From assembly GCA_947627195.1 (NCBI GenBank), contig CANQVC010000003.1, positions 9,871 through 73,870 on the forward strand: a stretch of 64,000 nucleotides of DNA. The letters are read 5' to 3'. Within the stretch, counting starts at the first letter, position 1; every line of letters begins with the position of its first letter. Source of the stretch: an uncultured Bacilli bacterium. Lineage in GTDB: Bacteria; Bacillota_I; Bacilli_A; ML615J-28; CAG-698. Under the pieces are notes generated by a model. That model had not been told where the DNA came from and did no database searches. It saw only the letters and a list, made by a program, of their open reading frames with translations. The position numbers were made by a program, and so were the translations under genes. Below, one piece after another: positions 827-60,812 of this stretch.

Positions 827-838
827 AAAATTAACCTT

Positions 839-2718: not shown

Positions 2719-2755
2719 TATTTCACCACCTTTTTTACTTCTTTTATTTTAGCAT

Positions 2756-2784
2756 ATTCTAGCAAAAAATACAATAAAAATCAA
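2756..2784 (-). promoter_or_regulatory. Sigma70 promoter for DUF624-namZ-nagZ
   Basis: TTGATT-17 nt-TAGAAT with extended -10 TG. Confidence 0.55.
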
Positions 2785-2799
2785 CGAGAATGAAGCCAC

Positions 2800-2830
2800 A
2801 AAAAAAGACCTAAGGAAAACCTTAGATCTT
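2800..2830 (-). terminator. Intrinsic terminator after SBP gene
   Basis: AAGATCTAAGG-TTTT-CCTTAGGTCTT followed by T run. Confidence 0.75.
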
Positions 2831-2842
2831 TATTTTCAATCA

Positions 2843-4636: not shown

Positions 4637-4656
4637 TTTTCTTCCTCCTTGTTTTT

Positions 4657-4728
4657 ATTGTGTTATATCACAATAGTGTGAAAATGTTTACACATTATCA
4701 TTATACAACACATTTGTTTTTTTGGCAA
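4657..4728 (-). promoter_or_regulatory. Promoter with two palindromic operator candidates
   Basis: TTGCCA(4723-4728)-17-TATAAT(4700-4705); LacI/cre-like TGTGAAAATGTTTACACA 4677-4694; ATTGTG-N6-CACAAT 4657-4674. Confidence 0.6.
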
Positions 4729-4744
4729 GCATTTTTTACTTTTT

Positions 4745-5755
4745 TTATTTTTTTGTAATTATCTTATTAAGGTATTTATAAGATTTCCATACTTCAAAAT
4801 AAAATTTTTGATAAAACTCCATCAAACCAGTCCAATCGATCATCACTTCAGTGCATCCATCATGTCGCAATGAAGATATGGAAAATTGTAATAAATCATT
4901 TCCAAATCCATGTTTACGATATTTTTGATCAACACCAAGTGGACCGATTCCACCTAACGATTTAAACCTTTCCTTCCACATCATATTATATGCAATTATT
5001 TTAGTTTTTGCCCTATTTACACGGGAAAAAGCAATGATTGGATAATTTAAATCATTAGGATCACGAATTAATAAATAGTCGTCACCATTTCCACCTAAGG
5101 TGAAATAATCTTTAACTTCATATGCCCATCGATTCCAATGATTATTTAACATCATTTTTATCATTTCTTCTTGATCATCTATTGTCGCTTTAACATAATC
5201 ATAATTTTTATTTATAATATTATTTTCAATATTATTAATGTTATTAATATTGATATTAATATTATTATTATCATTAAATCTACAAATCAAATCGTGAGTA
5301 TAACGAGACCCTTGATACCCTCTTTTTTCCAACCAGACATCTGTTAGATTATCGAAGTCAGTTGCAACACCTGGAAAAAAATTACGAATATCTTTACCAA
5401 TGTGAATTTGCATTTCATCAAATGAACTTTCATTTAATATATTATGACAAATTTCTTCAGAAATATTAAATAATTTAGAACCTATTCCTTGTTTTCGATA
5501 TTTCTTTGCTACATAAAATAATGATATAAAAGCCATTTTTTTATAATCAGGTATTAAATCATCATCAAAGAATTTTAAAATGATAAAGCCAACTAAATTA
5601 TTATTAGAATCATATGCACATATTATTCTTTTTAATTTATAACAATCAATAGATTGATAAAACCAATCTTGGGGAATGGGATAAATCATTCCCATTTCCT
5701 GATTCCATAAAGATAAAATTTTTTCTTCTTTTTCTACTTCTTTAAAATACATCAA
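4745..5755 (-). CDS. Tandem-GNAT N-acetyltransferase (possibly glucosamine/glucosaminide acetyltransferase)
   Basis: Two acetyl-CoA motifs (YRKQGIGS, YRKHGFG), GIGPLGV; downstream of nagZ-nagB. Confidence 0.75.
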   Translation of the reverse strand: MMYFKEVEKEEKILSLWNQEMGMIYPIPQDWFYQSIDCYKLKRIICAYDSNNNLVGFIILKFFDDDLIPDYKKMAFISLFYVAKKYRKQGIGSKLFNISEEICHNILNESSFDEMQIHIGKDIRNFFPGVATDFDNLTDVWLEKRGYQGSRYTHDLICRFNDNNNINININNINNIENNIINKNYDYVKATIDDQEEMIKMMLNNHWNRWAYEVKDYFTLGGNGDDYLLIRDPNDLNYPIIAFSRVNRAKTKIIAYNMMWKERFKSLGGIGPLGVDQKYRKHGFGNDLLQFSISSLRHDGCTEVMIDWTGLMEFYQKFYFEVWKSYKYLNKIITKK

Positions 5756-5792
5756 TTTAAATTATTTTACTTTAGTATATTACTTAAGTATA

Positions 5793-6527
5793 TTACTTTA
5801 GTAATGAACATGCTTCTTCATCAGCTACAACAGTAACAACACCAGGATGTTTCTTTAATGCTGATGCTGGAAATTCTTCTGTAACTGGTCCATTAACTAA
5901 TTGATAAATTGCTTCAGCTTTGTTTTTACCACTTGCTACTAATAATACTGATTTAGCATTCATTATATTTTTAATACCCATTGTAATTGCATGTGTTGGA
6001 ACTTGATTAATATCATTATCAAAGAAACGTGCATTATCTTTTCTTGTCTTTTCAGTTAATGTCACAACTAATGTTTCACTTTCAAATGAAGTTCCTGGTT
6101 CATTGAAACCAATATGTCCATTAGCACCAATTCCTAATAATTGTAAATCAACAGTTACTTTATTTAAAGCATCACTATATTCTTGACAATTTTTTTGTAA
6201 ATCTTTACCTAATGATGAAGGTAAATGAACATTTTCTTCTTCAATATCAACATGATTGAATAAATTTGTATGCATGAATGAATAATAACTTTCAGGATGT
6301 TCTCTTGGTAAATCACAATATTCATCCAAATTGTATGTTTTCACATTCTTAAAGGAAACTTCACCTTTTTTATAGGCATCAATTAAATATTGATACAATC
6401 CTACTGGACTACTTCCTGTTGCTAAACCTAATACACAATTGGGTTTTTCTTTGATTTGATGAAGCATGATTTCTCCTGCAACTTTACTTAATTCTTGATA
6501 ATCTTTAACTTTGATGAATTTAATCAT
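5793..6527 (-). CDS. nagB: Glucosamine-6-phosphate deaminase
   Basis: GLATGSSP, NLDEY, LGIGANGHIGFNEP motifs. Confidence 0.95.
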   Translation of the reverse strand: MIKFIKVKDYQELSKVAGEIMLHQIKEKPNCVLGLATGSSPVGLYQYLIDAYKKGEVSFKNVKTYNLDEYCDLPREHPESYYSFMHTNLFNHVDIEEENVHLPSSLGKDLQKNCQEYSDALNKVTVDLQLLGIGANGHIGFNEPGTSFESETLVVTLTEKTRKDNARFFDNDINQVPTHAITMGIKNIMNAKSVLLVASGKNKAEAIYQLVNGPVTEEFPASALKKHPGVVTVVADEEACSLLK

Positions 6528-6528
6528 T

Positions 6529-8115
6529 TTACTTCTCCTCTTTTTTGTTATTCATCTTAATTGGTAACTTGCCATAAAAAACATTAGATTGTAAACAATT
6601 TGCTAAAGCTTTTAAAGATTCTTTTGTACAATCATATGTACAAATATAATCTTTACAATTAGGTAATAAATTAATATCATAAGGTGATCTTAAACTTATA
6701 ACAATTAATTTATCTTTGTCTAATGCTTCATACAACTTTGTTTGTATATCATCTTTTTTAAGGTTGTAAGTTACTAACAATATTTTATCATATTTTTGCT
6801 CTTTTTGCACTATATTTTCAAAATTTTTTAAGTCTTGATTAATAATTATTTCATCATAATTTAAATATTGATTTAAAGTTTCACATTTATTATTTGCATT
6901 ATCAACTAATGATGCTAAGTGAATTTCTGGAAATAAAATTAAAACTTTATCATTTTTCTTTAATGGTAATAAAGAATTGTCCACAACATGAGTAATACTT
7001 TTATTTGTTAATTCTATACTTAATTTTTCATTATTAATATTATTAATGATATTAATATTATTATTATTTAGATATTTTTGTTTTAATTTTAATATTTTTG
7101 TTACTGATTCATTAATTCTTGAAATGGAAATTTTTTTATCTTTAACTAAAGTTTGAAAAGCTTTAATAATTTCTAATTGTTCATTAATATCAGCTTTCCC
7201 ACAAAACATTAGTATATCATTTCCTGCCATTATACCATGATAAACAATTTCAGGAATGGAATATTTTTGCCATATAGCAGCCATTGTTAATGAATCAGTA
7301 ATAATAAGTCCTTTAAAATTCATCTTTTCTTTTAATAATTTAGTAATTATTTGATAAGATAATGATGCTGGTAAATTTTCATCAATTGAAGAATACAAAA
7401 TATGAGAAATCATAATACCATCAATATTTTCTTTTATACTTTTTTCAAATGGTATAAATTCACATTTTTTTAAATCTTCGATTGTTTTAGAAACAATTGG
7501 TAAGCCTAAATGACTATCAACATTTGTATCACCATGTCCAGGAAAATGTTTAAGTGTTGGTAATATTCCGCCATCTTGTAAAGCTTTTGCGGAAAGTGTA
7601 CAATATTTTGCCACAACTTCAGGATCATCTGCATAACTTCTAGAATTAATAACTGGATTTAAAGGATTATTATTAACATCAGCAACAGGAGCAAAATCTA
7701 AATCAAATCCTAATTTTTTTAAATCCATTCCTAATAATTTATTAACTAAATATATCTTATTAGGATCATCATAACAACTTGCACTTAAAGCCATTGCCCC
7801 TGGTACATATGTTATCCCACTTTCGATTCTTCTAACCATTCCTCCTTCTTGATCTAAACCAATCCATAAAGGATAAGTGGCATGACTTCTAATTGTGTCA
7901 TTTAATAATTTAACTTGTTCATTGTTTTCAATATTCCTTGCAAAATAAATAATTGAACCTATTTTTTCTTTTTCAATTAATATTTCTAATTGTTCATTCC
8001 AAGTTGTACCATGAAAAGCAAAGCATAACATTTGGGCAATTTTTTCTTCTAATGTCATTTTATCTAGCAATTCATTTATATTATTAATATTATTAATGTT
8101 GTTAATATTGTTCAT
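6529..8115 (-). CDS. nagZ: GH3 beta-N-acetylhexosaminidase, second paralog
   Basis: DQEGG, KHFPGHGDTNVDSH, ITDSLTM; C-terminal GH3 domain. Confidence 0.9.
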   Translation of the reverse strand: MNNINNINNINNINELLDKMTLEEKIAQMLCFAFHGTTWNEQLEILIEKEKIGSIIYFARNIENNEQVKLLNDTIRSHATYPLWIGLDQEGGMVRRIESGITYVPGAMALSASCYDDPNKIYLVNKLLGMDLKKLGFDLDFAPVADVNNNPLNPVINSRSYADDPEVVAKYCTLSAKALQDGGILPTLKHFPGHGDTNVDSHLGLPIVSKTIEDLKKCEFIPFEKSIKENIDGIMISHILYSSIDENLPASLSYQIITKLLKEKMNFKGLIITDSLTMAAIWQKYSIPEIVYHGIMAGNDILMFCGKADINEQLEIIKAFQTLVKDKKISISRINESVTKILKLKQKYLNNNNINIINNINNEKLSIELTNKSITHVVDNSLLPLKKNDKVLILFPEIHLASLVDNANNKCETLNQYLNYDEIIINQDLKNFENIVQKEQKYDKILLVTYNLKKDDIQTKLYEALDKDKLIVISLRSPYDINLLPNCKDYICTYDCTKESLKALANCLQSNVFYGKLPIKMNNKKEEK

Positions 8116-37586: not shown

Positions 37587-37599
37587 TATCTCAACCTCC

Positions 37600-42134: not shown

Positions 42135-45100
42135 CTACTTCTTTGCTGCTTTCGTTGATGTTGCTAAACCAAATTCTTCACGTTTTCTGTCAATTTCACT
42201 ATTGATTGTTAAGATGTAATCAGATAATGTTTGACGTGGGTTTTCGTTATTATTAACAACATAACGGAATGCATTTTCAAGGTTACGTCCAGTATAATAT
42301 CCACCAGCAACTTCTGGAACACCAATTGTTTGTTCCCATTGATCTAACAATACGGCTTGTTCTTTTGTCGTCCATGATAAACGTTTAAATGCTTCAACAT
42401 TTGCAGTATTATGACGAGCTGCAGCTCCTAAAATTGCTTCAATTTCACGAGCATATCCAGCTTGTGTATCAGCACTTGTGAACCATTGCATGAACTTCCA
42501 TGATTCAAATGGTACATCTGTTTGTTTCATCATTATTAATGCTGTACCACTTGCAGCACCTAAATAATCAATTTCACCATTTTCTTTTTCAATACCAGGA
42601 AGTAATGCAAAATCCCATTTACCACGAATTTCTGGTGCAGAAACAGCTAATGTATTATAAATATCATAATTAACAATACCAATTGGTGTTTCACCACTAC
42701 GGAAACGGTTAACGAAACTTGCTTGAAGTGGGAAACTATAATCAGTATAGAAACTAGTCCAAAATTCGAATGCTCTCATTGCAGCTTCAGAATCAAAATT
42801 TGATTCAACATATTCTTCACCAAATTCATTAATAGATGTTCTATAAAATGCTGATTCTCTAGCATTATCAACTGATTGATATAAATATGATGCAAATATT
42901 TGGTTAACAACACTTGATGAACCTACTGTATTCAATGGTAAATAACATTCAAAATGTTGAATCTGTAATTCAGGAATTAAATTGATTAAATTATCCCAAG
43001 TTCTTGGAACTGACCAATCATATTCTTCAAACATATCAGTACGATAGAATAATACTAAGAAACTTTGAGTATATGGAAGAGCATAATAACCACCTTCAAA
43101 TTCATATGGTACCATCGCACTTTGTTTGAACCACATTGTTTCTTCATTTAAGGCAATTTCTTCAAATGAAGGGACATTATTATAACCAATTTCATCTAAT
43201 GCAGATCTTGAGAAAGTTGTTAAATCAAATGTAGCACCACGTAAAGCATAATTTACAGGAGTACCATTTGCTACGTTAATTGCAACATCTGGACCACGCC
43301 CTGCAAGTGTTGCCGTTAATAATACATCTGGAGAAACAACTTTTAGACTTACATTAACTCCATTTAATACACTATTAGGATTACTTCTTTCTTCATTAAT
43401 CATACTACTAATTGCATTAGCTTGTTCACGTCCTTGGTTTTCACTAGTTAATAGCCATACATCTACATCTTTCCATTCACTATTAGCTTCAGTCAAACCA
43501 ACACTTTCATAATCATAGAAGAATGATAAAACAAATCCTTTAATATTAAACCATAGACTACCAAAGGCATTTGGATTTGCTTTTGGAAGTTTGTAATCAG
43601 AACTATGAACTACAAGATAATCAATTGATAAAGCTTGTTGACTTACATCTAGAATCCATGTTCCTAATGAAGAAATATTTGTACTAAAATCAGATAGATT
43701 TTTTTGAATTTTATAATGATCTTTAATAAATTGTTTTAATTGAACTGACATTGTTTCAAGTGATGCTGTTTCACTACTCTTTTCTCCAGAAATTTCAGTA
43801 ATTTTTTTGGAAACATCAGTTAATGTATCAACAGCTTCTTGGAATTTTTCTTTTGCTTCAGCAATGAATTCTTTTCCACTGTCACCACCAAAATAATTAA
43901 TGTATGGGTCAGGATTAATACCAGTCTTTTGAATGATACGACGATATAATTTATTTAAATCATCAATGACATATTGAACACGACTAATTTGTGTTGCATA
44001 ATCACCTAAAGTACATTCTAATGTAATTGTATGTTTTCCTTTAGTTAGGTAGAATAAGAATGCTTCTTTATCAGTACCTAATGTAACGATACTCCAGTCA
44101 CTATTGTAAACAAATTTACAATTTTGTGCTTCTGCAAAAGGTGTTTCACCATCAATAGCAAGTTTTCTTGTTGAGAATAATCCACGGGAAACATTTTGTT
44201 TACAACGAAGTGATATTTCATACATGCCTTCTTCTTGAACTTCAAAGTCCCATGTAATCCAATCACCTGGTGTACTCCATTTAGCACCACCAATTGTATT
44301 TAATACTAATTTAACTGGTGATGATTTTGTTTTATTATGGTTTTCATCAATACAAACATTATATGCACTTGTTCTATCAGATACAGCATAAATTGTTGAA
44401 GAAGATCTAACAACATTAGTTGTACGACCATCTTCTTCAGGTCCACCTTCACCTTGAATTTGATATGCTACTTTACCACTAACAACTGGTTTACCTTGAT
44501 ATTGTGCTTTGTATTCTTCATATGAAATATATTTTTCAATACTTGTAACAAATACTTTAGAAACTAACATATTTTCACGAATTGATTCAATACCAATTGT
44601 ATGAGCACCAGCTGTAAAATAAATCATATATGGTTCTGTCACATATCCAACTTGATCATATACATATGAAGCTCTTAATTCAGGTTTTTCAACTTGTTTT
44701 GGTTTAATTTCATTTCCAGCTAAATCGACTAATTTACTACTTCCATCAGTAAATATTCTTTGGAATGCAACATTTGATAAATCGCTATATGGTATTTCTC
44801 CATCTATTTCAATTGCACGTTCAATATTAGCACCACCACTTGGTTCACCATCAGGATATACTTCTTCAGTTGATGGCATATATTCTAACAATAAATTATA
44901 AAAACCATTTTCAGGAATAACAACATCATAAATTAATTTTCCTAATGTTCCACTATAATTATAACTAACTTCATTAATTGTATGTGTAGCTCCTGTTGTA
45001 GTATCAAGTCCACTATTAGCATCTTGAGTTAATGTTGCATTATATTCAGCAGGAATTGCTTTATTTTCACCATTAACAACATAAGGATGATTTTCTGGGA

Positions 45101-45302
45101 AATTTTGTGGATAACTTTCCACATATTCTTTGTATTCACCACTTAATTCACTACCTCTAAGTGGAGTTGAATTAGACAATTTATGTCCACTACCAAAGCT
45201 TTGAATAACAACAACAAGAAGAAAAACAAATACAGCAACGCCTATAGCAATTAACGCTATTCTTTTTATCATCTTGCTCGATATTTTAATTTTGCGTTTC
45301 AT
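42135..45302 (-). CDS. Giant solute-binding protein with N-terminal CBM-like domains
   Basis: N-terminal TM; two beta-sandwich-like repeats; helical linker; C-terminal family-1 SBP (GPDV, LFYRTD, WDFALLPG); start set at ATG 45302 after GAAGGAGG. Confidence 0.8.
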   Translation of the reverse strand: MKRKIKISSKMIKRIALIAIGVAVFVFLLVVVIQSFGSGHKLSNSTPLRGSELSGEYKEYVESYPQNFPENHPYVVNGENKAIPAEYNATLTQDANSGLDTTTGATHTINEVSYNYSGTLGKLIYDVVIPENGFYNLLLEYMPSTEEVYPDGEPSGGANIERAIEIDGEIPYSDLSNVAFQRIFTDGSSKLVDLAGNEIKPKQVEKPELRASYVYDQVGYVTEPYMIYFTAGAHTIGIESIRENMLVSKVFVTSIEKYISYEEYKAQYQGKPVVSGKVAYQIQGEGGPEEDGRTTNVVRSSSTIYAVSDRTSAYNVCIDENHNKTKSSPVKLVLNTIGGAKWSTPGDWITWDFEVQEEGMYEISLRCKQNVSRGLFSTRKLAIDGETPFAEAQNCKFVYNSDWSIVTLGTDKEAFLFYLTKGKHTITLECTLGDYATQISRVQYVIDDLNKLYRRIIQKTGINPDPYINYFGGDSGKEFIAEAKEKFQEAVDTLTDVSKKITEISGEKSSETASLETMSVQLKQFIKDHYKIQKNLSDFSTNISSLGTWILDVSQQALSIDYLVVHSSDYKLPKANPNAFGSLWFNIKGFVLSFFYDYESVGLTEANSEWKDVDVWLLTSENQGREQANAISSMINEERSNPNSVLNGVNVSLKVVSPDVLLTATLAGRGPDVAINVANGTPVNYALRGATFDLTTFSRSALDEIGYNNVPSFEEIALNEETMWFKQSAMVPYEFEGGYYALPYTQSFLVLFYRTDMFEEYDWSVPRTWDNLINLIPELQIQHFECYLPLNTVGSSSVVNQIFASYLYQSVDNARESAFYRTSINEFGEEYVESNFDSEAAMRAFEFWTSFYTDYSFPLQASFVNRFRSGETPIGIVNYDIYNTLAVSAPEIRGKWDFALLPGIEKENGEIDYLGAASGTALIMMKQTDVPFESWKFMQWFTSADTQAGYAREIEAILGAAARHNTANVEAFKRLSWTTKEQAVLLDQWEQTIGVPEVAGGYYTGRNLENAFRYVVNNNENPRQTLSDYILTINSEIDRKREEFGLATSTKAAKK

Positions 45303-47139
45303 GAGCTCCTCCTTCATAAAAATCTAAACTCTTTATAGCAAATTCTTTCAGTTTTTCTAAATTTAAAATAGTTTTATCTAAACCACTATATTTATTACGA
45401 ATTAACCAAATTCTTTTTAATTCCAATATTAATCCATCTATCGAACCAATTGCTTCTTTTAGACAAGCAAGGCGATATTCGATATCAACTTTTGGTTGAT
45501 GAGCTAGACTAACTTTCATAATTGTTTTTAAAACATTAATTGAATGAATAATTTCATCTTTAACTAATGAATCAACATCAGCAAATGATAATTCTTTACA
45601 TTTTTGTTCAAAGAAATCATTCAATAAAATAAATTCTTCTAAACTTAAATAATTATATTTCATTTTAGAAGTGAAATATTGAATTGGATCTTTTTCTTTT
45701 AAAGCATTTAATGCCCAAACCATTGAATAAAATGTTACACTACCATTACCTGTATAATGTGGTTCATATTTAAAATATGTACCAATATCCATCAATATAT
45801 CAGAAATTAATTCTTTGGAATCATGGAAGATATAATGATTTAAATAATATTTTAAATCTTTATAAGTTCCTTCTTTACAACGATAACTTAATAAACCAGC
45901 ATAAGCTAAAGGAGCAAATGAAATTGGTAAATGTTGCAAATGACCAACATCTCCCCAATCAGTAAGAATAACTCCCATTCCACCTAATTTATAAATATCC
46001 CAAACAGCATTATTAATTGTTTCTAACCAGTCTTGAGTTCGACCTAATAATGTGCACCATGTAGTAGTTCCTGGAGCAGCCATAAATTTAACCCCAGCAT
46101 TTTTTAATTTTGATAAATGATCGTAGAAAGGATATTCAGCATCATATCCCCAATCAACAAATATCATATCTTTAGGAATTTTTGATAAGACATTGTCATG
46201 ACGAATAAGAACATCTCCCCAAATTAATGGTGTTTTATGATATTTCTTTATTTCTTCATATGCTTTTATTGTATAATCTAAATATACATTTTCTTCGCCA
46301 TATTTTTCACATTCTTCTTTAGATTTATCTTTTCCTAATTCGAATGGTTCATCAAAATTCATATGAAAATAAGATGATTTAAAATGAGGGAGCATATCGT
46401 GATACATTTTTTTAACTAATTCAATTGACTTTTCATCTAAAGGATTTAAAGTACTAGGTTTCCGATGTGAGCCCCATAAATCAATTCCATTAGGTGCTTC
46501 AGCAAGTTCTTTAAATTCATCTTTTTCAAGCCAATCAGTCATATGTCCAAATCCATTTTGATTTGGTACAAAATCTATTTCGTGTAATAAAGCATAATCT
46601 TCAATTTCATGATATTCATCAAGACTTAAATATGAATCTTTTTCTAGATATTGTTTAAATGATTTATATTCAAAACTAAATCCTTCAACATATAATTCTA
46701 AATGATTCATTTTTAAATCACTCATTATATCAATAATTTTCTTTACAGTTTCTACCTTTGGCACTTTATTACGACTAATATCGTAAGTAAATCCTCTAAT
46801 TTCAATATCAGGACCATCTTCAATATGAACACATTTCATAAAAGGGTGATATATCTGTTTTAACGTTTTCACAGCATAATAAAAACCACTATTACTATTA
46901 GCATATATTGTAATTTTGTTTGGTTCAATATCAAGTTCGTAATATTGATCTTTTAAAGATTTTTTTGTTATTAATAAAAAGTTGCTTTCCTCTTTAGATA
47001 CTTGTTTATATTTTATAAATTCATTTAATTCTTGTATAACAGATTTTATGTTTATATCAAAGTAAATAAAGAATTCTGTTATATTTAATTCACCAAGTAA
47101 ATCCTTTTGAATTTTTACTCTAGGGTAAATGAGATACAT
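45286..47139 (-). CDS. GH20 beta-N-acetylhexosaminidase
   Basis: RGFTYDISR, GH, HMNFDE catalytic pair, WGD, TDWGD; no signal peptide. Confidence 0.88.
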   Translation of the reverse strand: MYLIYPRVKIQKDLLGELNITEFFIYFDINIKSVIQELNEFIKYKQVSKEESNFLLITKKSLKDQYYELDIEPNKITIYANSNSGFYYAVKTLKQIYHPFMKCVHIEDGPDIEIRGFTYDISRNKVPKVETVKKIIDIMSDLKMNHLELYVEGFSFEYKSFKQYLEKDSYLSLDEYHEIEDYALLHEIDFVPNQNGFGHMTDWLEKDEFKELAEAPNGIDLWGSHRKPSTLNPLDEKSIELVKKMYHDMLPHFKSSYFHMNFDEPFELGKDKSKEECEKYGEENVYLDYTIKAYEEIKKYHKTPLIWGDVLIRHDNVLSKIPKDMIFVDWGYDAEYPFYDHLSKLKNAGVKFMAAPGTTTWCTLLGRTQDWLETINNAVWDIYKLGGMGVILTDWGDVGHLQHLPISFAPLAYAGLLSYRCKEGTYKDLKYYLNHYIFHDSKELISDILMDIGTYFKYEPHYTGNGSVTFYSMVWALNALKEKDPIQYFTSKMKYNYLSLEEFILLNDFFEQKCKELSFADVDSLVKDEIIHSINVLKTIMKVSLAHQPKVDIEYRLACLKEAIGSIDGLILELKRIWLIRNKYSGLDKTILNLEKLKEFAIKSLDFYEGGAHETQN

Positions 47140-47153: not shown

Positions 47154-47209
47154 AGAAAAAGCGTTTTTTCTCTTATGTTTATTATACCATAGTATACCAT
47201 TTTTTTCAA
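47154..47209 (-). promoter_or_regulatory. Promoter and cre/LacI-like operator of the GH20-ABC operon
   Basis: TTGAAA(47204-47209)-17-TATAAT(47181-47186) with TG; near-palindrome AGAAAAAGCGTTTTTTCT 47154-47171. Confidence 0.65.
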
Positions 47210-47617: not shown

Positions 47618-47717
47618 ATGTGCAATGTGCACATTTTTATTTTTTGTTTAAGATATAATAAAAAAATAATTAATTAAAAATTTCCTACTTATAAATATAA
47701 TAAAAAAGCTGATAATG

Positions 47718-48335
47718 TCATTTAAGATCATTATCAACTTTATTACTTTCTAACAAAGAATATTTACATCCACAATATTCTTGACGGTATAAATTATATT
47801 TTTTCGATAATTGAATAGATTTTTTATATCCTTCTTTTTTCTTAAAATTGGAATAGAAAAAAGGAATATCATAAACTTTAGAAAAATGTTCACCAAGTTC
47901 ATTTATCCAATCACTATTTTTATAAGGGCTAATTGAAAGAGTTGTTGTGAAAAAATCATAACCTAATCTTTTAGCTTCTTTAGCTGTTTCTTCTAAACGG
48001 AAGCTATAACAACAATAACATCTTTTACTTCCTTCTTTTAAATGTTCAAACCCTAATATAGCATTATCATATCTAAGTGGGTCATACTTTCCCTCGATGA
48101 ATTTAAATTCTAGAGGAATCTTTTTAAATTGTTCTTTTCTTTTATCATATTCTTCTTTAGGAAAAATATTAGGATTATCATAAAAAATAGTAATTGCAAA
48201 ATATTTATTTAAAATGTCCAATACTTCAGTAGAACAAGGTGCACAACAAGCATGAATTAATATTTTAGGTTTAGGATTTTGTGGTTCTGATTTAAGAAAT
48301 TCAGTATAAGCTAAATAGCTATCAACTTTAAACAT
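47718..48335 (-). CDS. queH: Epoxyqueuosine reductase QueH (DUF208)
   Basis: HACCAPCS, NPNI, RC..C...RL, YRQEYCGC. Confidence 0.92.
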   Translation of the reverse strand: MFKVDSYLAYTEFLKSEPQNPKPKILIHACCAPCSTEVLDILNKYFAITIFYDNPNIFPKEEYDKRKEQFKKIPLEFKFIEGKYDPLRYDNAILGFEHLKEGSKRCYCCYSFRLEETAKEAKRLGYDFFTTTLSISPYKNSDWINELGEHFSKVYDIPFFYSNFKKKEGYKKSIQLSKKYNLYRQEYCGCKYSLLESNKVDNDLK

Positions 48336-48336
48336 T

Positions 48337-49662
48337 TTAATAAGGTTTTACATCCTTTGTCCAAGCTTTTAATAATAATTCTCTAGCTTTAACTAATGTT
48401 GGTTTATCATTTTTAACAAAGTCATGATATGTAAAGAAAACACATCCTTTAACATTTTCATATAAATCATTAACTTTCAATTGGTTAATTATTTCTTCAG
48501 GATTTCCCCAATTGCCATGATCAGTATAACGATAAATTCCTTGACCAATATATAATTTAACATTAGTCTTTTTTGCTGCCCAACTCCACCAATCAACTAA
48601 ATCAGCATATTTCACAATTTCAATTGTTTTGCCATCTTCTGCTACTTTAAAACTATCTAAGGAAAAATAATCTTGAGGAACAACATAATCTATCCAACCT
48701 TTTTCCATCCATAGATATATATCAGCATATAATCCTTCATAACATTGGAAACATGAATGATGATTATGTGAGCCATATTCCCATCCGCCTTCTTTACCAG
48801 CTTCAGCGAAATGACTAGAATGAGTACGATAAATACCAAATGGACTAATACCAAATTCTACTTTATGATCTAACGTATTTAACGCATCATGAATTTTCTT
48901 AATCATGGTATTAACATTTTCTCTTCTAAAATCATCTAAAGAAAGTTCAGGGTGTAATGCTTGATGTTTTTTTTCTTCAAGTGGATCACTAATTGGATCA
49001 TATGGATAAAAATAATCATCGATATGAATAGCTTTAATTGGATATTTTTTCGCAATTTCTAATACTGTATCAACAAGATAATCTTGAACTTTCGAACTAG
49101 CTGGATCTAATATTAATTTATGTTCAGATGTTTCAATAACACAATCAGGATATTTACGAGCAAAATTTTTAGGACTTAATTTTTCTTGTAAGAATTGTTC
49201 TTTTGTCATGTTAATTTCATTTAATTTTGTACCTCTAACACGATAAGGATTCATCCATGCATGTACATCAATTTCAGCTTCTTTTGCTTTATTAACAAAA
49301 TAACCAAATAAATCAAATCCAGGATCTTCATCTTCAGTTTTTGTCTTACTTAAATAACAACTCCATGGATTAATATCTGATTGGTAAAAGGCATCACATC
49401 CTGGACGTACTTGAAATACAACAGTATTTAAATGATATTTTTTACAAGTTTTAATGACATCATCCATTTGTTCTTTGTATTCTTCAATAGAATCACAAGG
49501 ATGTATATCAATATTTTCCACAGTAGAAAACCAAACACCTCTAGTTTCTTGCTTTTTTTCTTTCACATTTTCGTTAATCATGACAGGTTTATCAGTACCA
49601 TAATATGTAATAAATCCTTCACGTTCAACACATTCAATTTTCTTCATCATTATTCTCCTCAT
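48337..49662 (-). CDS. GHL10 (YddW/DigH-like) glycosyl hydrolase, cytoplasmic
   Basis: RGVW, FQVRP, HAWMNPYR, HIDDYFYP, FGISPFG, DYVVPQ. Confidence 0.85.
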   Translation of the reverse strand: MRRIMMKKIECVEREGFITYYGTDKPVMINENVKEKKQETRGVWFSTVENIDIHPCDSIEEYKEQMDDVIKTCKKYHLNTVVFQVRPGCDAFYQSDINPWSCYLSKTKTEDEDPGFDLFGYFVNKAKEAEIDVHAWMNPYRVRGTKLNEINMTKEQFLQEKLSPKNFARKYPDCVIETSEHKLILDPASSKVQDYLVDTVLEIAKKYPIKAIHIDDYFYPYDPISDPLEEKKHQALHPELSLDDFRRENVNTMIKKIHDALNTLDHKVEFGISPFGIYRTHSSHFAEAGKEGGWEYGSHNHHSCFQCYEGLYADIYLWMEKGWIDYVVPQDYFSLDSFKVAEDGKTIEIVKYADLVDWWSWAAKKTNVKLYIGQGIYRYTDHGNWGNPEEIINQLKVNDLYENVKGCVFFTYHDFVKNDKPTLVKARELLLKAWTKDVKPY

Positions 49663-50593
49663 ATAATTCTTCTAAAATTGTTATTTCTTGTTTATTAGCA
49701 TCTAATCTTACTTTTAAGCCAATTGGTAAATTAATAAAAGGAAATTGATGACCAGATGCAAAATGATAAATAACAGGTTTATTTAAATTTTGAAAATATT
49801 CTTGAATTAATTCATCAACTTCAGGTTCATCATCATCTTTATGACAATTTGTGAAATGTCCAAAGATAAATCCTTTAGCTTCATCAAGATATCCCCCTAA
49901 TCTTAATTGAGCAAACATCCGATCAATATTATATGGTTGTTCATCAACTTCTTCAATAAAAACAATTTTATCTTTAAAATCAATTTCATAAGGAGTACCT
50001 ATCAAATCGGATATTAAACATAAGTTGCCACCACTCATTTCTCCTTCAACAATTCCTCCACATAATGTTTTAGCATCATTATAAGGATTTTTTAAAACAC
50101 GGTTTAAAGTGTTAGTTGTCAATAATGTTTTAAATTCATTTAAGGAAAATTCATCACATTTAGGACTTGATATAAATATTCCAACTTGTCCATGAACCGT
50201 TGGTAAATAACTATATTTATATAAATTATTTAATAATACAGTAATATCACTAAATCCCATAAATAATTTAGGATGTTTTTTAATCATTTCATAATCTATT
50301 TTATCAACAATTCTACTTGCTCCACAGCCACCTTTATAACATATAATAGCTTTTATATTAGGATCTAAAAACATTTGATGAATGTCATTTATTCTTTCTT
50401 CATCATTTCCTGCTAAATAGCCATGTTGTAAATAACATGTTTTGCCAAATTGAACATTATAACCAAAAGAAGAAAAAATATCTTCAATTTTTTTCATTCT
50501 TTCTTGTTGTTTATTTCTTGAAGAAGGGCAAATAAAACCAATTGTATCCCCTTTCTTCAACATTCTTACTTGACATTTATTCATATTAATCAC
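49634..50593 (-). CDS. ldcA: S66 LD-carboxypeptidase
   Basis: GFSDIT, GGNL, FIEEVDE, SGH triad motifs. Confidence 0.9.
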   Translation of the reverse strand: MINMNKCQVRMLKKGDTIGFICPSSRNKQQERMKKIEDIFSSFGYNVQFGKTCYLQHGYLAGNDEERINDIHQMFLDPNIKAIICYKGGCGASRIVDKIDYEMIKKHPKLFMGFSDITVLLNNLYKYSYLPTVHGQVGIFISSPKCDEFSLNEFKTLLTTNTLNRVLKNPYNDAKTLCGGIVEGEMSGGNLCLISDLIGTPYEIDFKDKIVFIEEVDEQPYNIDRMFAQLRLGGYLDEAKGFIFGHFTNCHKDDDEPEVDELIQEYFQNLNKPVIYHFASGHQFPFINLPIGLKVRLDANKQEITILEELYEENNDEEN

Positions 50594-51284
50594 TAAATGA
50601 ATTAGGTTTTACAGTAAATTTGCCATAATCTTGGACATTAAATGCTTGAGCATGTTCACATTTAGCTAAGCATCCACGAACATAAGTTAAATGAGTATAA
50701 TAATTATAATATTTAAAATCTTTACTGTTCATAATAAACCAATGTTTAGCAATAGCTTTTGTCCATAAATCATAACCTTCAGAACAATTAACTAAAATAT
50801 ATGGATCAAATCCTATTCTATCTTCCCAGTTTTCACAGAAATATACTGGAGAATACCATCTTTCAAGAGGTACTTTATCCCCCATATCAATGCCTGCATA
50901 AAATTGAGCATCAACTACAATTTTAGAACATGTTGCATGATCTTTATGCATACTATTTTTCCAATGAGTGAAAATTGCATTTGGACGATATTTACGAATT
51001 AAAGCTGCAACTTGTAATCTAACTTCATCATTATCAGGAAGTTCACCATCACAATAAGGGAATACAATTGATTCACCATTTAACATTTCCGCAAATTCTT
51101 TTGCTTCTTTTACTTTTTGCACACGATATTCTTCAACAGTCATTGTTTTGGGATTTCCTCTTTCACCTGCTGTTAAAGCAACAGTAATAATTCTATCACC
51201 TATTAATGCTTGTGTAGCTAATACACAACCACATGTTAACTCCATATCACCGATATGTCCACCAATTGCCATAAATGTTTTCAT
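50586..51284 (-). CDS. PIG-L/LmbE family de-N-acetylase
   Basis: GHIGDME variant of HPDDE, TAGE, HKDH. Confidence 0.8.
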   Translation of the reverse strand: MKTFMAIGGHIGDMELTCGCVLATQALIGDRIITVALTAGERGNPKTMTVEEYRVQKVKEAKEFAEMLNGESIVFPYCDGELPDNDEVRLQVAALIRKYRPNAIFTHWKNSMHKDHATCSKIVVDAQFYAGIDMGDKVPLERWYSPVYFCENWEDRIGFDPYILVNCSEGYDLWTKAIAKHWFIMNSKDFKYYNYYTHLTYVRGCLAKCEHAQAFNVQDYGKFTVKPNSFSD

Positions 51285-51314
51285 TTTTTAATTCTCCTTT
51301 TTTATATTTATTTT

Positions 51315-52370
51315 TTATTCAAACATTGTATCTAAATGAGTAAAGATATAATTTGCTAATCTTGCTCTGAATGGAATAATTTTATTATTTTGTCTTGTAG
51401 GATGTACACGGTTACTTAAAACGCAATATGCTACTTTATTTTGACGATCAATGACAATATTAGTGCCAGTAAAACCTGTATGCATAATCGTTTCATCACT
51501 AGCAAATTCTCCACAACAACATTGTTTTCCTTTCACAATCCAACCTATTCCTCTTCGATATGTATCTAAACTAATTCCTTCTTTTTCTTCTACTTGGGGT
51601 TTAAAGAATAAATCGATACTTTGTTTAGACAATATTCTTTTTCCTTTGTACATACCATTATCTAAAATCATTTTAAGAAAATGACTTAAATCTTTAACAC
51701 AACTGAATAAACCAGCATGGCCTGCAACACCATCTAATGTATGAGCAACTTCATCATGAACATAGCCACGATCTATTTTGTCACCTCTATCTTCAGTAGG
51801 GGCACATCTATTTACATCAGTTGGACAATACCCTGAATCAAACATTTCTAAAGGTTCAAGCAAGTTCTCTTTCACAAACTTATCTAATGGCATATTACTT
51901 ACTTTTTCAATAATCCATCCAAGTAAAATAAATCCTAAATCAGAATAAACCATTTTAGTGTTTTTTTCATATTCCTTTTCACAACTCATGATATTATCAT
52001 ATAATTCTTGTTTGGACAAGAAATGTCCATTTATTAAATCAGCTGGTAAACCAGAAGTATGAGTTAATAAATCCCATATTGTAACATCTTTATGAATAAA
52101 ATCAGGAAGAAATACTGATACATAATCATATAAACGAATCAATCCTCTTTCAGCTAACATCATTATTGAACTTGTTGTGGCAACAACTTTTGTACATGAT
52201 GCCATATCATAAAGAGTATTAATATCATTATCTTCTTCAACTGGATATAAACTCTTTTTGCCATATGCATGAAAATAAGTTTTGTCATTAATTATTAAAC
52301 ATAATGTTGCTCCAGGAAATACTCCATCTTTAACTGCTTTAGTCATTATTTCATTAACTTTTTCAATCAT
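51315..52370 (-). CDS. Beta-lactamase-fold serine hydrolase (AmiE-like)
   Basis: SCTK, LLTHTSG, YSD, GHAGLFS, HTGFTG. Confidence 0.8.
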   Translation of the reverse strand: MIEKVNEIMTKAVKDGVFPGATLCLIINDKTYFHAYGKKSLYPVEEDNDINTLYDMASCTKVVATTSSIMMLAERGLIRLYDYVSVFLPDFIHKDVTIWDLLTHTSGLPADLINGHFLSKQELYDNIMSCEKEYEKNTKMVYSDLGFILLGWIIEKVSNMPLDKFVKENLLEPLEMFDSGYCPTDVNRCAPTEDRGDKIDRGYVHDEVAHTLDGVAGHAGLFSCVKDLSHFLKMILDNGMYKGKRILSKQSIDLFFKPQVEEKEGISLDTYRRGIGWIVKGKQCCCGEFASDETIMHTGFTGTNIVIDRQNKVAYCVLSNRVHPTRQNNKIIPFRARLANYIFTHLDTMFE

Positions 52371-52378
52371 ATTGCCTC

Positions 52379-54583
52379 CTAATCTTCTGATGTCATAACT
52401 ATCTTATCATGATAACGACGATAGAAATTTTGGTAACATATTTTATCAATATCTTCTTCACTTAATCCTATTTTTTGCATTCCTTCTATAATACGATAAG
52501 CAAATGTTGCATCTTTTACTTCTTCTAAATTACTATTAGGAAAATCAGATAAATAATCCATAAAATCAAATCCAAAGCACACATTATCAACGCCCATAAT
52601 AGAAATAGCATATTTTAAATGTTCTAAAAAGCGATCTAATGTTTGATTGTTTTCATCTTTATCAACAAAATTATTAGCTAATGTCAATCCTAATAAACCA
52701 TCAACTTTCTTTAAAGCTTTCATTTGATCATCAGTGACATTTCTAACATGAGAACATAATTTCTTTACATTTCCATGGGAATAAATAATATTTTTATTAA
52801 CTACTTTTAAAGCATCATAAAAACTTTTTTCGTTTAGATGAGCTAAATCAATAATCATTCCTAATTGTTCCATTCTTTTTAGTAGACGAATTCCTTCTTC
52901 AGTAAAGCCTCTTTCAGGATTAGATTTAGCTCCTGTTGCATATTTATTTTCTTCATTCCATGTTACCATAGCATGACGAAATCCCATATTGTATAAAATA
53001 TCAATATCTTCAACACATTTTAAATTTCTTAAGCCTTCTAGTCCTAATACTACTTTAAAATTGGCAAGTTCTTTTAAATTGATTTCTTTTAATGCTATTT
53101 TACATGCTTCAATTAAGTCAAAGTCATTTGGTGAATACATTGTAAATATACTACCTTTAATAACACTTTGTGATAATTGTGGGACATGATATTTTTCAAA
53201 ACGATGATCAATTCCTTTTGTTTTGTTTGTCCATAAATCATATAACATATCACTATGACAATCAAACATACGTTTTATCGGAGTAGAAATCATTGTTCGA
53301 CATAAATCTTCATATTCTTCACGACGGATTGTTAAATGGACATGATCATTATTAACAAAAATAACAGCTCCACGTACCATGCCATTGTAATTTGAACTCA
53401 TAGAATAACCATATGCTCCAGTACAATATGTAACTAAAACATCATTTTCTTTAACTTTTGTTAATGGATAATCAGTAACAATAATATCCCCAGATTCACA
53501 GCATGGTCCAACTACATCAACAATTTCTTTATCTTGAATATTTTCATCAACATGATTAGCTATATCAACACTATATTTGGCTTGATATAAAGCAGGGCGA
53601 ATATTATCAGTCATTCCGCCATCAACGAAAACATATTTTTTACCTCCATATGTTTTCTTTGTTCCACCAACTGTATATAATGTGAAGCCAGCATCACCAA
53701 CAATACTTCGACCAGGTTCAATCATGACTTTTTTTAAACTTAAATGATATTTATCAATAAATGAATCAATAGTATTAGTAATGGCTTTAACCATTGATGC
53801 TAAATCTATTTCAGTATCTTCATTAGTATATTGAATGCCAAATCCTCCACCAAGATTTAAAACTTCAAATGAACAATTATTTCTTTCTTCTACATCTTTC
53901 ATGAAATTTAAAAGGGTACTTGTGGCATCTTGAAAACTTTTAGGTTGATGAATATTCGAACCAATATGACTATGAAAACCTAATAATGTTAAATATTGGC
54001 TTTCATTTGCTTTTTTAACTATTTTATCAATTTTATCTTTATCAAAAATTGATTCACCAAACTTACTACTTAATAAAGATGTTTGAATATATTCATGAGT
54101 ATGAGCACTAATACCAGGATTAACGCGTAATAAAATGGATACTTTAGTATTTTCTTCTTGAGCAATCTTTTCTAACTCTTCTATTTCTTCTAAATGGTCA
54201 ACAACAATATAACCAACATGATGTTTAATTGCATATTTTAATTCACTTGTCGTTTTATTGTTTCCATGTAAAACTACTTTTTCCATTGGAAATCCACTAC
54301 GATTAATTATGTATAAATCTCCTTCACTTACACTATCTAATCCCATACCATATTCATGTATTATTTGCATCATATATGGACATAAAAAAGCTTTAGTAGC
54401 ATAAACTGTCATACATTCATATTTATTACTTTGAAAATTTTCTTTTAAAACATCTAATTTATGACGAATGTGTTTTTCATCATAAACATATAATGGTGTT
54501 TTATATCTAGTTGCTAATTCTTGCAATTTAAATGAACCAACATATAATTCATTATTTTGAACTTTCATAGAGATTGTTCTCAT
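52379..54583 (-). CDS. lysA: Diaminopimelate decarboxylase fused to M19 metallo-dipeptidase
   Basis: N-half YATKAF, HSHIGS, EPGR, CESGD, GAYG; C-half DCHSD, LEG, DLAH, YSHGN, RN, GFDF. Confidence 0.9.
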   Translation of the reverse strand: MRTISMKVQNNELYVGSFKLQELATRYKTPLYVYDEKHIRHKLDVLKENFQSNKYECMTVYATKAFLCPYMMQIIHEYGMGLDSVSEGDLYIINRSGFPMEKVVLHGNNKTTSELKYAIKHHVGYIVVDHLEEIEELEKIAQEENTKVSILLRVNPGISAHTHEYIQTSLLSSKFGESIFDKDKIDKIVKKANESQYLTLLGFHSHIGSNIHQPKSFQDATSTLLNFMKDVEERNNCSFEVLNLGGGFGIQYTNEDTEIDLASMVKAITNTIDSFIDKYHLSLKKVMIEPGRSIVGDAGFTLYTVGGTKKTYGGKKYVFVDGGMTDNIRPALYQAKYSVDIANHVDENIQDKEIVDVVGPCCESGDIIVTDYPLTKVKENDVLVTYCTGAYGYSMSSNYNGMVRGAVIFVNNDHVHLTIRREEYEDLCRTMISTPIKRMFDCHSDMLYDLWTNKTKGIDHRFEKYHVPQLSQSVIKGSIFTMYSPNDFDLIEACKIALKEINLKELANFKVVLGLEGLRNLKCVEDIDILYNMGFRHAMVTWNEENKYATGAKSNPERGFTEEGIRLLKRMEQLGMIIDLAHLNEKSFYDALKVVNKNIIYSHGNVKKLCSHVRNVTDDQMKALKKVDGLLGLTLANNFVDKDENNQTLDRFLEHLKYAISIMGVDNVCFGFDFMDYLSDFPNSNLEEVKDATFAYRIIEGMQKIGLSEEDIDKICYQNFYRRYHDKIVMTSED

Positions 54584-54621
54584 TATAAATCACTCTCCTA
54601 GTTTTTATTATATCATATTTA

Positions 54622-55593
54622 TTAGTAATTGTTAATCAAATCATTTGTAAGATTATTAATTAAATCTAAAAATTCATCTTTTGTATGAACATACATAAGT
54701 TTTGTTTTAAATTCTTTAGCATTTGCCATTCCTTTAACATACCAAGCTGCTAATGTTCTCATTTCTAAAACTGCTATTTTTTCAGTCTTTAATTCAACTA
54801 AATCTAAAAAATGTTTTTTAAGAACATTTAGTTTTTCCATATTTGTTGGTGGAGTATATAAAACGTTTTGTAAATGACATTGAAATTCTTTAAATATCCA
54901 AGGATTACCTAATGATGCTCTACCAATCATTACAGCATCTACTCCTGTCTTTAACATATTATCTAAATCATCAGTTGTCTTAATATCACCATTACCAATA
55001 ACAGGAATATTGACACTTTCCTTGACTTTTTTAATAATATCTAAAGATGCAGAGCCATGGTATAAATCACTTTTGGTTCTACCATGAATGGTAATACCAC
55101 TAGCGCCAGCTTCCTCCATGGCTTTGGCCATTTCAACACAATTAATACTTTGATGATCCCATCCTGTTCTCATTTTTACTGTTACTGGTTTAGCTATATT
55201 ATTAACTATTTTATTAACAATTTCTTTGGCATGAGAAATGTTTTTCATTAAATAAGATCCACTTTCAGCTTTAATGACTTTTTTAACAGGGCAACCCATA
55301 TTTATATCAATAATATCACAATTAGTTCTTTTTTCAATTTCTTTAGAAGCTTTAACCATTTCATCAATATTGGAACCAAATAATTGAATACTAACTGGAT
55401 GTTCATTTTCATCTATTTTACACATTTCCCATGTTTTATCATTTTCATATAATAATCCTTTATCACTTATCATTTCTGATGTTGTTAATGAAGCACCATA
55501 TTGATGACATAATAAACGATATACTTGATTAGTATATCCTGCCATTGGGGCTAATACTAATTTACCTTGAATATTAACATTACCAATTTTCAT
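54622..55593 (-). CDS. dusB: tRNA-dihydrouridine synthase
   Basis: LAPMAG, DINMGCP, IHGRT, GNGDI, MIGR. Confidence 0.92.
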   Translation of the reverse strand: MKIGNVNIQGKLVLAPMAGYTNQVYRLLCHQYGASLTTSEMISDKGLLYENDKTWEMCKIDENEHPVSIQLFGSNIDEMVKASKEIEKRTNCDIIDINMGCPVKKVIKAESGSYLMKNISHAKEIVNKIVNNIAKPVTVKMRTGWDHQSINCVEMAKAMEEAGASGITIHGRTKSDLYHGSASLDIIKKVKESVNIPVIGNGDIKTTDDLDNMLKTGVDAVMIGRASLGNPWIFKEFQCHLQNVLYTPPTNMEKLNVLKKHFLDLVELKTEKIAVLEMRTLAAWYVKGMANAKEFKTKLMYVHTKDEFLDLINNLTNDLINNY

Positions 55594-60544: not shown

Positions 60545-60806
60545 AAAAAGTCCTCGATAGAAAAAAATCTATCAAGGACGAATAATATTATCCGCGGTGC
60601 CACCTTGGTTTCACGAAAATCGTGCACTTTTTAGGATACTTACATATCCCTAGCAACTTACGTATGCTTTCACGTTGCAGAATAATTTGATATAAATCAT
60701 TTCACTGCACCCTCCACGGTCCATTTGACAAACTGTATCTTACCTGACTCTCACCATCACAGGCTCTCTTTGAAGTCATATTTGCCTTTATCTCCGTATC
60801 AACGGT
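60545..60806 (-). ncRNA. Trp T-box riboswitch with terminator
   Basis: AGAGAG and GGTGAGA stem I boxes, specifier TGG at 60721-60723, T-box AACCAAGGTGGCACCGCGG 60592-60610, terminator 60550-60579 + T run. Confidence 0.92.
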
Positions 60807-60812
60807 TTAAAA

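Follow-up and report, generated by a model that had tools for sequence, protein, structure and literature searches.

Peptidoglycan recycling and the scavenging of N-acetylmuramic acid (MurNAc) are already known from several bacteria. In Escherichia coli, murein peptides are recycled through LdcA, the M14 peptidase MpaA, YcjG, PepD, and Mpl, and the diaminopimelate (DAP) that is released can be used by LysA. The ykfABCD operon of Bacillus subtilis encodes an LdcA homolog (YkfA), an L-Ala-D/L-Glu epimerase (YkfB), and a gamma-D-Glu-DAP endopeptidase (YkfC), while MupG of Staphylococcus aureus and NamZ of B. subtilis are intracellular or exo-muramidases that cut the bond between MurNAc and N-acetylglucosamine (GlcNAc) in catabolism. 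In Tannerella forsythia, scavenged sugar rebuilds the organism's own wall. T. forsythia is described as a MurNAc auxotroph that depends on the wall components of its neighbors (PMC6721243), the murQ-murR-murP-amiE-nagZ-ybbC (namZ) cluster of B. subtilis as a system for MurNAc recycling in which AmiE and NagZ are extracellular (PMC5061867), and Cwp19 of Clostridioides difficile as an enzyme that frees 1,6-anhydro- and reducing-end muropeptides from peptidoglycan (PMC6016235). Here we describe a locus in a 64,000-nucleotide (nt) stretch of DNA, referred to below as the window, from an uncultured Bacilli bacterium (genome G000; assembly GCA_947627195.1, contig CANQVC010000003.1, positions 9,871 to 73,870). 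Five minus-strand genes at window positions 48337-54583 encode a fusion of LysA with an M19 dipeptidase, an S12 beta-lactamase-fold serine hydrolase, a PIG-L-family deacetylase, an LdcA-type carboxypeptidase, and a GHL10 glycosidase. We favor, as the probable reading, that they are the core of a larger cytoplasmic locus that finishes imported foreign peptidoglycan fragments and recovers food and lysine from them.

The locus shares with the B. subtilis MurNAc cluster a stepwise breakdown of muropeptides, in which enzymes of the hexosaminidase, beta-lactamase-fold, and muramidase types lead to MurQ (PMC5061867); G000 also has MurQ, NamZ, and a GH3 protein on the same contig. It differs in that the enzymes of the window lack signal peptides, GH20 and GHL10 are used, LdcA, M19, and LysA are included, and uptake is of the ATP-binding cassette (ABC) type rather than by a phosphotransferase system. 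Compared with recycling in E. coli, a cytoplasmic LdcA that trims the tetrapeptide and the potential conversion of wall-peptide DAP to lysine are common to both, whereas MpaA and a YcjG-type epimerase were not found in G000, a LysA-fused M19 stands in their place, and the cluster also occurs in wall-less genomes. The likeness to ykfABCD lies in a dedicated cytoplasmic stem-peptide operon opening with an S66 carboxypeptidase, but no NlpC/P60 protein or epimerase was found in G000, and ykfABCD has neither M19 nor LysA. The proposed reliance on wall components made by neighbors recalls T. forsythia, yet many carriers here are wall-less and the fusion highlights DAP/lysine as the salvaged item. 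Finally, the small GHL10 is proposed to do the same MurNAc-GlcNAc job as MupG and NamZ, although the protein families differ. Since G000 has GH3::MupG, NamZ, and GHL10, the last may have a distinct substrate, such as longer or anhydro-ended glycans. Our literature searches returned papers on Cwp19 and on MurNAc recycling but nothing on the cluster, on the LysA–M19 fusion, or on peptidoglycan use by wall-less relatives; an earlier reading made from the sequence only had likewise not recognized the combination as a described operon.

Conservation of the locus and wall synthesis in its carriers

We compared 41 genomes, namely G000, 24 relatives from its family (f1), and 16 members of a sister family (f2). 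They are 1 to 2 Mb in size, the G+C content of the window is ~27%, and the sequencing runs listed as containing this DNA are animal gut metagenomes from two studies, with no RNA run among those listed. In transcription order, the five open reading frames (ORFs) encode 734, 351, 232, 319, and 441 amino acids (aa); gaps of 8 and 30 nt separate the first three, and the last two junctions are overlaps of 8 and 29 nt. These coordinates and spacings match the sequence-only reading of five tightly packed or overlapping genes. That reading had also found a signal peptide in none of them, with which a simple hydropathy test agrees: none of the five proteins, nor the neighboring GH20, showed an N-terminal signal or membrane segment.

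The fusion protein as a query matches 38 of the 41 genomes. Of the 25 f1 genomes searched, 20 carry LysA and M19 either fused or side by side. An uninterrupted fusion is found in 14 of them (G000 included), and in 6 lysA is followed directly by M19, with the stop codon of the one overlapping the start codon of the other or only a few codons away from it and, in G014, with an in-frame TAA between the two. M19 occurs alone in two f1 genomes, and neither lysA nor M19 in three. In one of the genomes without lysA (G005, locus L032, 8522-11095), a stand-alone M19 gene lies between dusB and a gene for a NagB-type glucosamine-6-phosphate deaminase.

Searches with tblastn of the window proteins against 20 fetched loci returned a recurrent order of dusB, lysA and M19 (fused or adjacent), serine hydrolase, tandem GNAT, PIG-L, LdcA, GHL10, queH, GH20, and binding protein, in which tandem GNAT, PIG-L, LdcA, and queH are the variable members. 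The same gene order is found in 19 loci of related genomes, and because of this recurrence the arrangement is not due to chance; the synteny that the sequence-only reading had proposed to look for in relatives thus exists. Its set of five genes, by contrast, holds only in part. Among the 20 loci with lysA and M19 (window included), the serine hydrolase is present in all, GHL10 in 18, GH20 in 17 (16 of the 19 related loci), LdcA in 15, tandem GNAT in 14 (identity confirmed by Pfam on two loci), and PIG-L in 9, and the five genes of the window occur together in 7. Tandem GNAT is lacking in the window's own cluster. The unit extends beyond the five genes to the GH20, binding protein, and permease genes downstream. 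All five proteins retain their catalytic motifs in each ortholog examined, those from wall-less genomes included.

Links to peptidoglycan recur outside the two families. A homolog of the serine hydrolase was found in 70 of 300 scored genomes of the class, and loci were retrieved from 20 of these 70, of which 17 belong to other orders and 3 to f2. Beside the serine hydrolase stand GHL10 in 13 of them and AnmK in 8, across the four families f13, f16, f18, and f19, and PIG-L and GNAT are present in 5 each; homologs of the binding protein adjoin serine hydrolase loci in other families. One such locus (L128) combines an RpiR/MurR-type regulator, AnmK, GH4, a small GHL10, a secreted double GHL10, the serine hydrolase, a secreted Big_2–Amidase_2 protein, an unknown protein, and a binding protein. 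In a record of Haploplasma modicum (L066), a member of a wall-less mollicute genus, a single strand encodes a NagK-type kinase and MurQ (379 bits; cut-off 302), GH20, esterase, NAGPA-type, and unknown proteins, M19 and PIG-L, a tandem GNAT that is 42 to 46% identical to the in-cluster GNAT of the relatives, and a HAD hydrolase.

These genes might nonetheless be neighbors without a shared pathway, with LysA acting on imported free DAP, M19 serving as a general dipeptidase, and the rest being housekeeping hydrolases kept by slow rearrangement. Genes for tRNA modification, conserved in the same run, do travel with the cluster (dusB in 16 and queH in 8 of the 19 related loci), and because of this co-travel synteny within one family is weak evidence. 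PIG-L, LdcA, and GHL10 vary between loci, each being dispensable in some, and lysA and M19 lie on different contigs in all 14 of the 16 f2 genomes that have both. Homologs of M19 in Lachnospiraceae, Dorea, Anaerosphaera, and two more Bacilli loci (L072 to L076) have no cluster genes nearby, and the unannotated ORF layout there looked monocistronic. Against this, the serine hydrolase, GHL10, PIG-L, tandem GNAT, and M19 co-recur across families in varied order, accompanied by AnmK, MurQ, MurR-type regulators, and Amidase_2, and fusion or coupling of LysA and M19 is kept in 20 genomes. We consider a set of unrelated neighbors unlikely and prefer a common role in the use of wall fragments.

Whose wall is used can be judged from the carriers. 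MurE and MraY, identical in their patterns, are present in G000, in 11 of the 24 f1 relatives, and in all 16 f2 genomes, while both were not found in the same 13 f1 relatives at completeness of 93 to 98% (G006, G008, G010 to G015, G018 to G021, and G023, below called wall-less). Eleven of these 13 carry the cluster and constitute 11 of the 20 cluster-bearing genomes; the other 9 are walled. Scores over cut-off were obtained for dapA in 3 of the 41 genomes and for dapB in 2, both of the latter being f1 genomes in which dapA and dapB are neighbors. In the 98%-complete G000 neither gene was found, and both are lacking in 10 of the 11 wall-less carriers. LysA matches occur in 38 genomes and DapF in 30. 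MurQ is over cut-off in 34; of the cluster-bearing genomes 18 of 20 have it, and of the wall-less carriers 10 of 11. Since MurE and MraY are missing from 11 carriers, recycling of an own wall is impossible there, and the lack of dapA and dapB leaves LysA without DAP made by the cell itself. With neither an own wall nor endogenous DAP, the simplest explanation is that DAP comes from imported foreign wall peptides and is made into lysine. Occurrence of the cluster without wall synthesis and DapA/DapB thus points to scavenging and lysine salvage, not recycling, a distinction that the sequence-only reading had missed.

Classical own-wall recycling of the kind seen in E. coli or B. subtilis, where turnover fragments are reimported and degraded, draws some support from the walled carriers, which make up 9 of the 20, and from LdcA, a hallmark of recycling. 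G000 itself has MraY and a MurE with the DNPR motif, the mark of DAP-adding enzymes, and probably builds a DAP-type wall. Yet the 11 carriers without MurE and MraY have intact genes with their catalytic motifs kept, and as an explanation of the locus own-wall recycling seems to us quite improbable; in G000, recycling and scavenging may coexist.

Walled and wall-less lineages seem interleaved within f1. The MurE of the genus to which G000 belongs (G000 contig C20, 16725-18029; G001 to G004) matches its model only from position ~51 to 82, in frames of 394 to 479 aa, and seems to be without the N-terminal UDP-MurNAc-binding domain; the G000 protein has an Asn-rich insert, and other walled relatives match from position 1 or 2. 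In an f2 locus (L134, 3680-6083), a 431-aa gene of the Mur ligase family and a LacI-type regulator precede the f2 form of the cluster by a few kilobases, and this short Mur ligase could be an Mpl-type recycling ligase.

Predicted activities of the five proteins

Families were called with Pfam at gathering scores and with NCBIfam at equivalog cut-offs. By these measures the lysA-M19 fusion named in the sequence-only reading is real, with TIGR01048 at 444.8 bits (cut-off 297.9) and PF01244 at 202.3 bits (cut-off 26) in a single 734-aa ORF. G000 has only one LysA match, that of the fusion. The motifs A[ST]KAF, EPGR, and CES[GSA]D, which hold the pyridoxal phosphate (PLP)-binding lysine and catalytic residues, are each conserved in 20 of 20 orthologs. 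An AlphaFold2 (AF2) model built from 14 fusion sequences has a mean predicted local distance difference test (pLDDT) score of 83.9 and a predicted template modeling score of 0.58. It consists of two well-folded domains joined by a linker of low confidence (residues 424-436, pLDDT below 50); in this model the two domains have no fixed mutual packing. Foldseek matches the high-confidence LysA domain best to solved meso-DAP decarboxylases (TMt 0.85 to 0.90), with 1tuf, 5x7m, and 1hkw on top (0.85 to 0.89). On these grounds, the N-terminal domain is predicted to be a meso-DAP decarboxylase of the fold-type III PLP type.

The match of the M19 domain begins only at profile position 104, and its relatives in the PDB are GliJ, Lmo2462, and Sco3058. 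Bacterial M19 dipeptidases tend to favor L-X–D-X dipeptides, a form shared by both mDAP–D-Ala and L-Ala–D-Glu. The metal or catalytic positions (HxD, E, H, H, D) are kept in 21 of 21 orthologs, the E, H, and H being placed by alignment with GliJ and the HxD by where it lies on the domain's first strand; in the human M19 enzyme, the zinc ligands are His20, Asp22, Glu125, His198, and His219 (PMC9305348). That the product of M19 is the substrate of LysA, or arises along with it, is hinted at most clearly by the fusion or translational coupling of the two.

The serine hydrolase matches PF00144 at 176 bits from residue 6 and conserves SxxK (SCTK at residue 58), Y[ST]D, and HTG (at 297) in 20 of 20 orthologs, a layout compatible with a DD-peptidase too. 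The best of its 36 NCBIfam matches is PBP4B at 165.2 bits, below the cut-off of 385, and the next is AmpH at 64 bits; a sequence search of the PDB returned esterases and PBP-like proteins only, and homologs carry only generic names ("serine hydrolase," "CubicO group peptidase"). AmiE of B. subtilis acts outside the cell (PMC5061867), whereas this protein has no signal peptide. The label "AmiE-like" given in the sequence-only reading is unproven, the more so as G000 encodes two signal-less Amidase_2 proteins (and four secreted ones), to which the MurNAc–L-Ala amidase step could fall instead. From its sequence, we would place the enzyme in the cytoplasm, as either an AmiE-like MurNAc–L-Ala amidase or a DD-peptidase acting on stem peptides.

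LdcA contains both S66 domains, the N-terminal one (PF02016) at 128 bits and the C-terminal one (PF17676) at 125.5 bits, each over its gathering score. Its motif positions G[FLY]SD, [IL]E[ED]V, and GH, to which we assign the Ser-Glu-His triad of S66, are kept in 15 of 15 orthologs. PIG-L scores 71.1 bits with PF02585 (cut-off 28.2) and keeps the metal-binding motifs GH[IV]GD (H..D) and HKDH in 9 of 9 orthologs; its PDB relatives are TT1542, BshB, and, at E ~3e-7, diacetylchitobiose deacetylase, and a protein atlas search returned PIG-L clusters only. We suggest that PIG-L, and tandem GNAT in relatives, tune amino-sugar N-acetylation for material from partly deacetylated walls. The tandem GNAT elsewhere in the window was considered as a relocated ortholog of the relatives' in-cluster GNAT and rejected, its similarity being at motif level only. 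In G000, true homologs of the in-cluster GNAT occur on contigs C67 and C10, with GDPD and metallophosphatase genes next to them.

The small GHL10 scores 170 bits with PF02638 (cut-off 27.9), and its closest solved relative is Cwp19 (5oq2; E 6.3e-63 over residues 37-417). The active-site residues proposed for Cwp19, Arg132, Asp195, Asp196, and Tyr197 (PMC5765458), align with NPYR and H[IM]DDYFYP, both kept in 18 of 18 orthologs. The catalytic domains are thus homologous and the proposed residues are kept in the window protein, but Cwp19 is an S-layer autolysin that is secreted and bears CWB2 repeats (PMC6016235), whereas the window GHL10 is a bare, signal-less 441-aa domain in a catabolic operon. 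Across genomes, a split recurs between large secreted GHL10 proteins (693 to 1,328 aa) and one small signal-less GHL10 (404 to 441 aa), which fits wall cutting outside and finishing inside the cell. By its sequence, the small GHL10 probably cuts MurNAc-GlcNAc bonds of imported glycan. On another contig of G000 (C35, 16285-21196), two tandem large GHL10 paralogs of 693 and 897 aa have signal peptides, the second with Listeria-Bacteroides repeats, and these are probably surface or secreted wall-cutting enzymes.

Might the sugar enzymes instead serve another GlcNAc polymer, such as chitin oligomers or host glycans, with the peptidases belonging to a separate peptide catabolism? GH20 is present, PIG-L resembles diacetylchitobiose deacetylases, and the binding protein has a weak match to the chitobiose-type NgcE (26 bits). 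Moreover, GHL10 is not confined to peptidoglycan, since a Deinococcus member is reported to act on starch (PMC9967864). However, the D-amino-acid and DAP chemistry handled by LdcA and LysA is specific to the wall, homologous loci are accompanied by AnmK and MurQ, both specific for (anhydro)MurNAc, and the closest characterized GHL10 is a peptidoglycan enzyme. Another polymer is possible for the sugar enzymes, yet it leaves LdcA, LysA, AnmK, and MurQ unexplained, and as an account of the whole locus we give it little credence.

A proposed route for imported wall fragments and its gap

Under the preferred reading, in which foreign peptidoglycan is the source, we infer the following substrates and order of steps. 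Wall material of other bacteria would be cut outside the cell by secreted GHL10 and Amidase_2 proteins whose genes lie in other parts of the genome, and glycan or glycan-peptide fragments would be imported by the anchored binding protein and the two adjacent permeases. In the cytoplasm, the signal-less GH20 would take off terminal GlcNAc and the small GHL10 would cut MurNAc-GlcNAc bonds, as Cwp19 does; MurNAc or anhydro-MurNAc would then pass through AnmK or a kinase to MurQ, NagA, and NagB, all encoded elsewhere. The S12 hydrolase would free the stem peptide from MurNAc, or trim D-Ala-D-Ala ends and cross-links, while LdcA would remove the terminal D-Ala from tetrapeptides. The gamma-D-Glu–mDAP bond would have to be cut by a further enzyme. 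M19 would hydrolyze L-X–D-X dipeptides (L-Ala–D-Glu and/or mDAP–D-Ala), and the fused LysA would decarboxylate the freed meso-DAP to L-lysine, with DapF making LL-DAP usable. In walled members such as G000, salvaged DAP could also supply MurE.

The sugar end of this route has a companion in the first 8 kb of the window (Table 1), which encodes the N-terminal part of a GH3::MupG fusion, NamZ, tandem GNAT, NagB, and GH3. It continues upstream of the window, where the same contig encodes a BadF/ROK kinase together with AnmK and MurQ, an alpha/beta hydrolase, and an Amidase_2 without a signal peptide. NagA is encoded elsewhere in G000. The NagZ-type GH3 and the MupG 6-phospho-N-acetylmuramidase apparently form one frame of ~880 aa (window 2-826 plus L080 8039-9868).

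Several observations weigh against the route, in addition to the dispensable and cotraveling genes, the starch report, and the PBP4B score and PDB matches of the serine hydrolase given above. For the step that frees mDAP from gamma-D-Glu, neither PF00246 (M14) nor PF00877 (NlpC/P60) has a match in G000, and an L-Ala-D/L-Glu epimerase of the MR/MLE type was not found there either, the sole PF13378 match being an enolase at 26.9 bits. PIG-L reaches 79.2 bits with BshB1, below the cut-off of 182.5, and LdcA reaches 139.3 bits with the model for the E. coli-type muramoyltetrapeptide carboxypeptidase (NF008424), below the cut-off of 378. G001 and G020 have dapA-dapB, so that ordinary biosynthesis is open to their LysA. 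Every genome used is a draft assembly, in which a gene that was not found need not be absent, and promoter-like sites are not enriched in the region (126, compared with 128.6 in shuffled sequence). The claim of the sequence-only reading that the predicted activities map onto successive muropeptide steps consequently stands for the dismantling of peptidoglycan fragments in the cytoplasm, given the match to Cwp19 and the contexts with AnmK, MurQ, MurR, and Amidase_2, but not as a complete series, as the mDAP-releasing peptidase and the epimerase were not found.

This gap allows a bolder version, namely, that wall-less, Mollicute-like gut bacteria without a DAP pathway live partly on foreign peptidoglycan and obtain lysine through the fused M19–LysA, with S12, M19, or PIG-L representing a new type of mDAP-releasing amidase. 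Because no NlpC/P60, M14, or epimerase was found, a hydrolase of the cluster would be a new gamma-D-Glu–mDAP amidase. We offer this version tentatively and regard it as doubtful in its entirety. If the general reading holds, a cytoplasmic route from foreign wall peptides to lysine would be a new nutritional strategy, especially for cells without a wall and a DAP pathway. It would explain the survival of orphan LysA and DapF in reduced genomes and give a physiological role to three groups of enzymes that are so far poorly understood, namely, cytoplasmic GHL10 proteins, M19 dipeptidases of the short bacterial type, and beta-lactamase-fold hydrolases without a signal peptide. It also points to a missing mDAP-releasing enzyme, potentially a new enzymatic step, and bears on the removal of immunologically active muropeptides by gut communities.

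Neighboring genes and other features of the window

Table 1. Coordinates of the locus, its neighbors, and associated features in the window
Feature	Position	Strand	Family or remark
LysA domain of fusion, residues 1-423	53315..54583	-	meso-Diaminopimelate decarboxylase (predicted); TIGR01048
M19 domain of fusion, residues 437-734	52379..53275	-	Renal-dipeptidase-type zinc dipeptidase (predicted); PF01244
S12 beta-lactamase-fold serine hydrolase	51315..52370	-	PF00144
PIG-L/LmbE-family metal-dependent de-N-acetylase	50586..51284	-	PF02585
LdcA-type LD-carboxypeptidase (S66)	49634..50593	-	PF02016 + PF17676
Small signal-less GHL10 glycosidase, 441 aa	48337..49662	-	PF02638
queH (epoxyqueuosine reductase)	47718..48335	-	PF02677, 213 bits; 1 nt 3' of GHL10
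Signal-less GH20 beta-N-acetylhexosaminidase	45286..47139	-	PF00728 + PF02838
1,060-aa protein with N-terminal hydrophobic membrane anchor and C-terminal sugar-type ABC solute-binding domain	42135..45317	-	SBP_bac_1, SBP_bac_8
First ABC permease gene	41129-42124	-	BPD_transp_1
Second ABC permease gene	40156-41136	-	BPD_transp_1
Companion amino-sugar cluster	2..8115	-	GH3::MupG N-terminal part 2-826, NamZ 839-1975, tandem GNAT 4745-5755, NagB 5793-6527, GH3 6529-8115
Promoter-like site TTAACA-17-TGnTATAAT	54607..54635	-	Directly upstream of fusion gene; best minus-strand match
Promoter-like site	47181..47209	-	Upstream of GH20 gene; second of the two best minus-strand matches

Immediately downstream of GHL10, queH is probably cotranscribed with it yet functionally unrelated. 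A perfect palindrome with a 7-bp stem (ATGTGCA..TGCACAT, 47618-47634) lies 3' of queH; it has a terminator score on the plus strand only, where no gene ends, and may be an operator. The scan for promoters and terminators did not rise above shuffled sequence.

Beyond the two permeases of the importer follow a 621-aa protein without a family (38280-40145), Yip1, DUF5696, and two more permeases. Together these form a second transporter module on the minus strand (31683-40145), composed of the 621-aa protein, a Yip1-domain protein, a 1,142-aa DUF5696 protein, and ABC permeases that are unusually long (386 and 441 aa). The 621-aa protein has no similarity to the 806-aa unknown protein of the Haploplasma locus.

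The fusion gene is preceded by dusB, two mgtE genes, and trpA. An Rfam scan of the window for structured RNAs returned a T-box only and no lysine riboswitch; this T-box leader (60571-60811, minus strand; 94.4 bits against a gathering score of 93) precedes the trp genes (trpA at 58671-59363). The mgtE genes (55608-58525, minus strand) are tandem paralogs of a magnesium transporter with ~36% mutual identity, and the pair is kept in at least two relatives of the genus.

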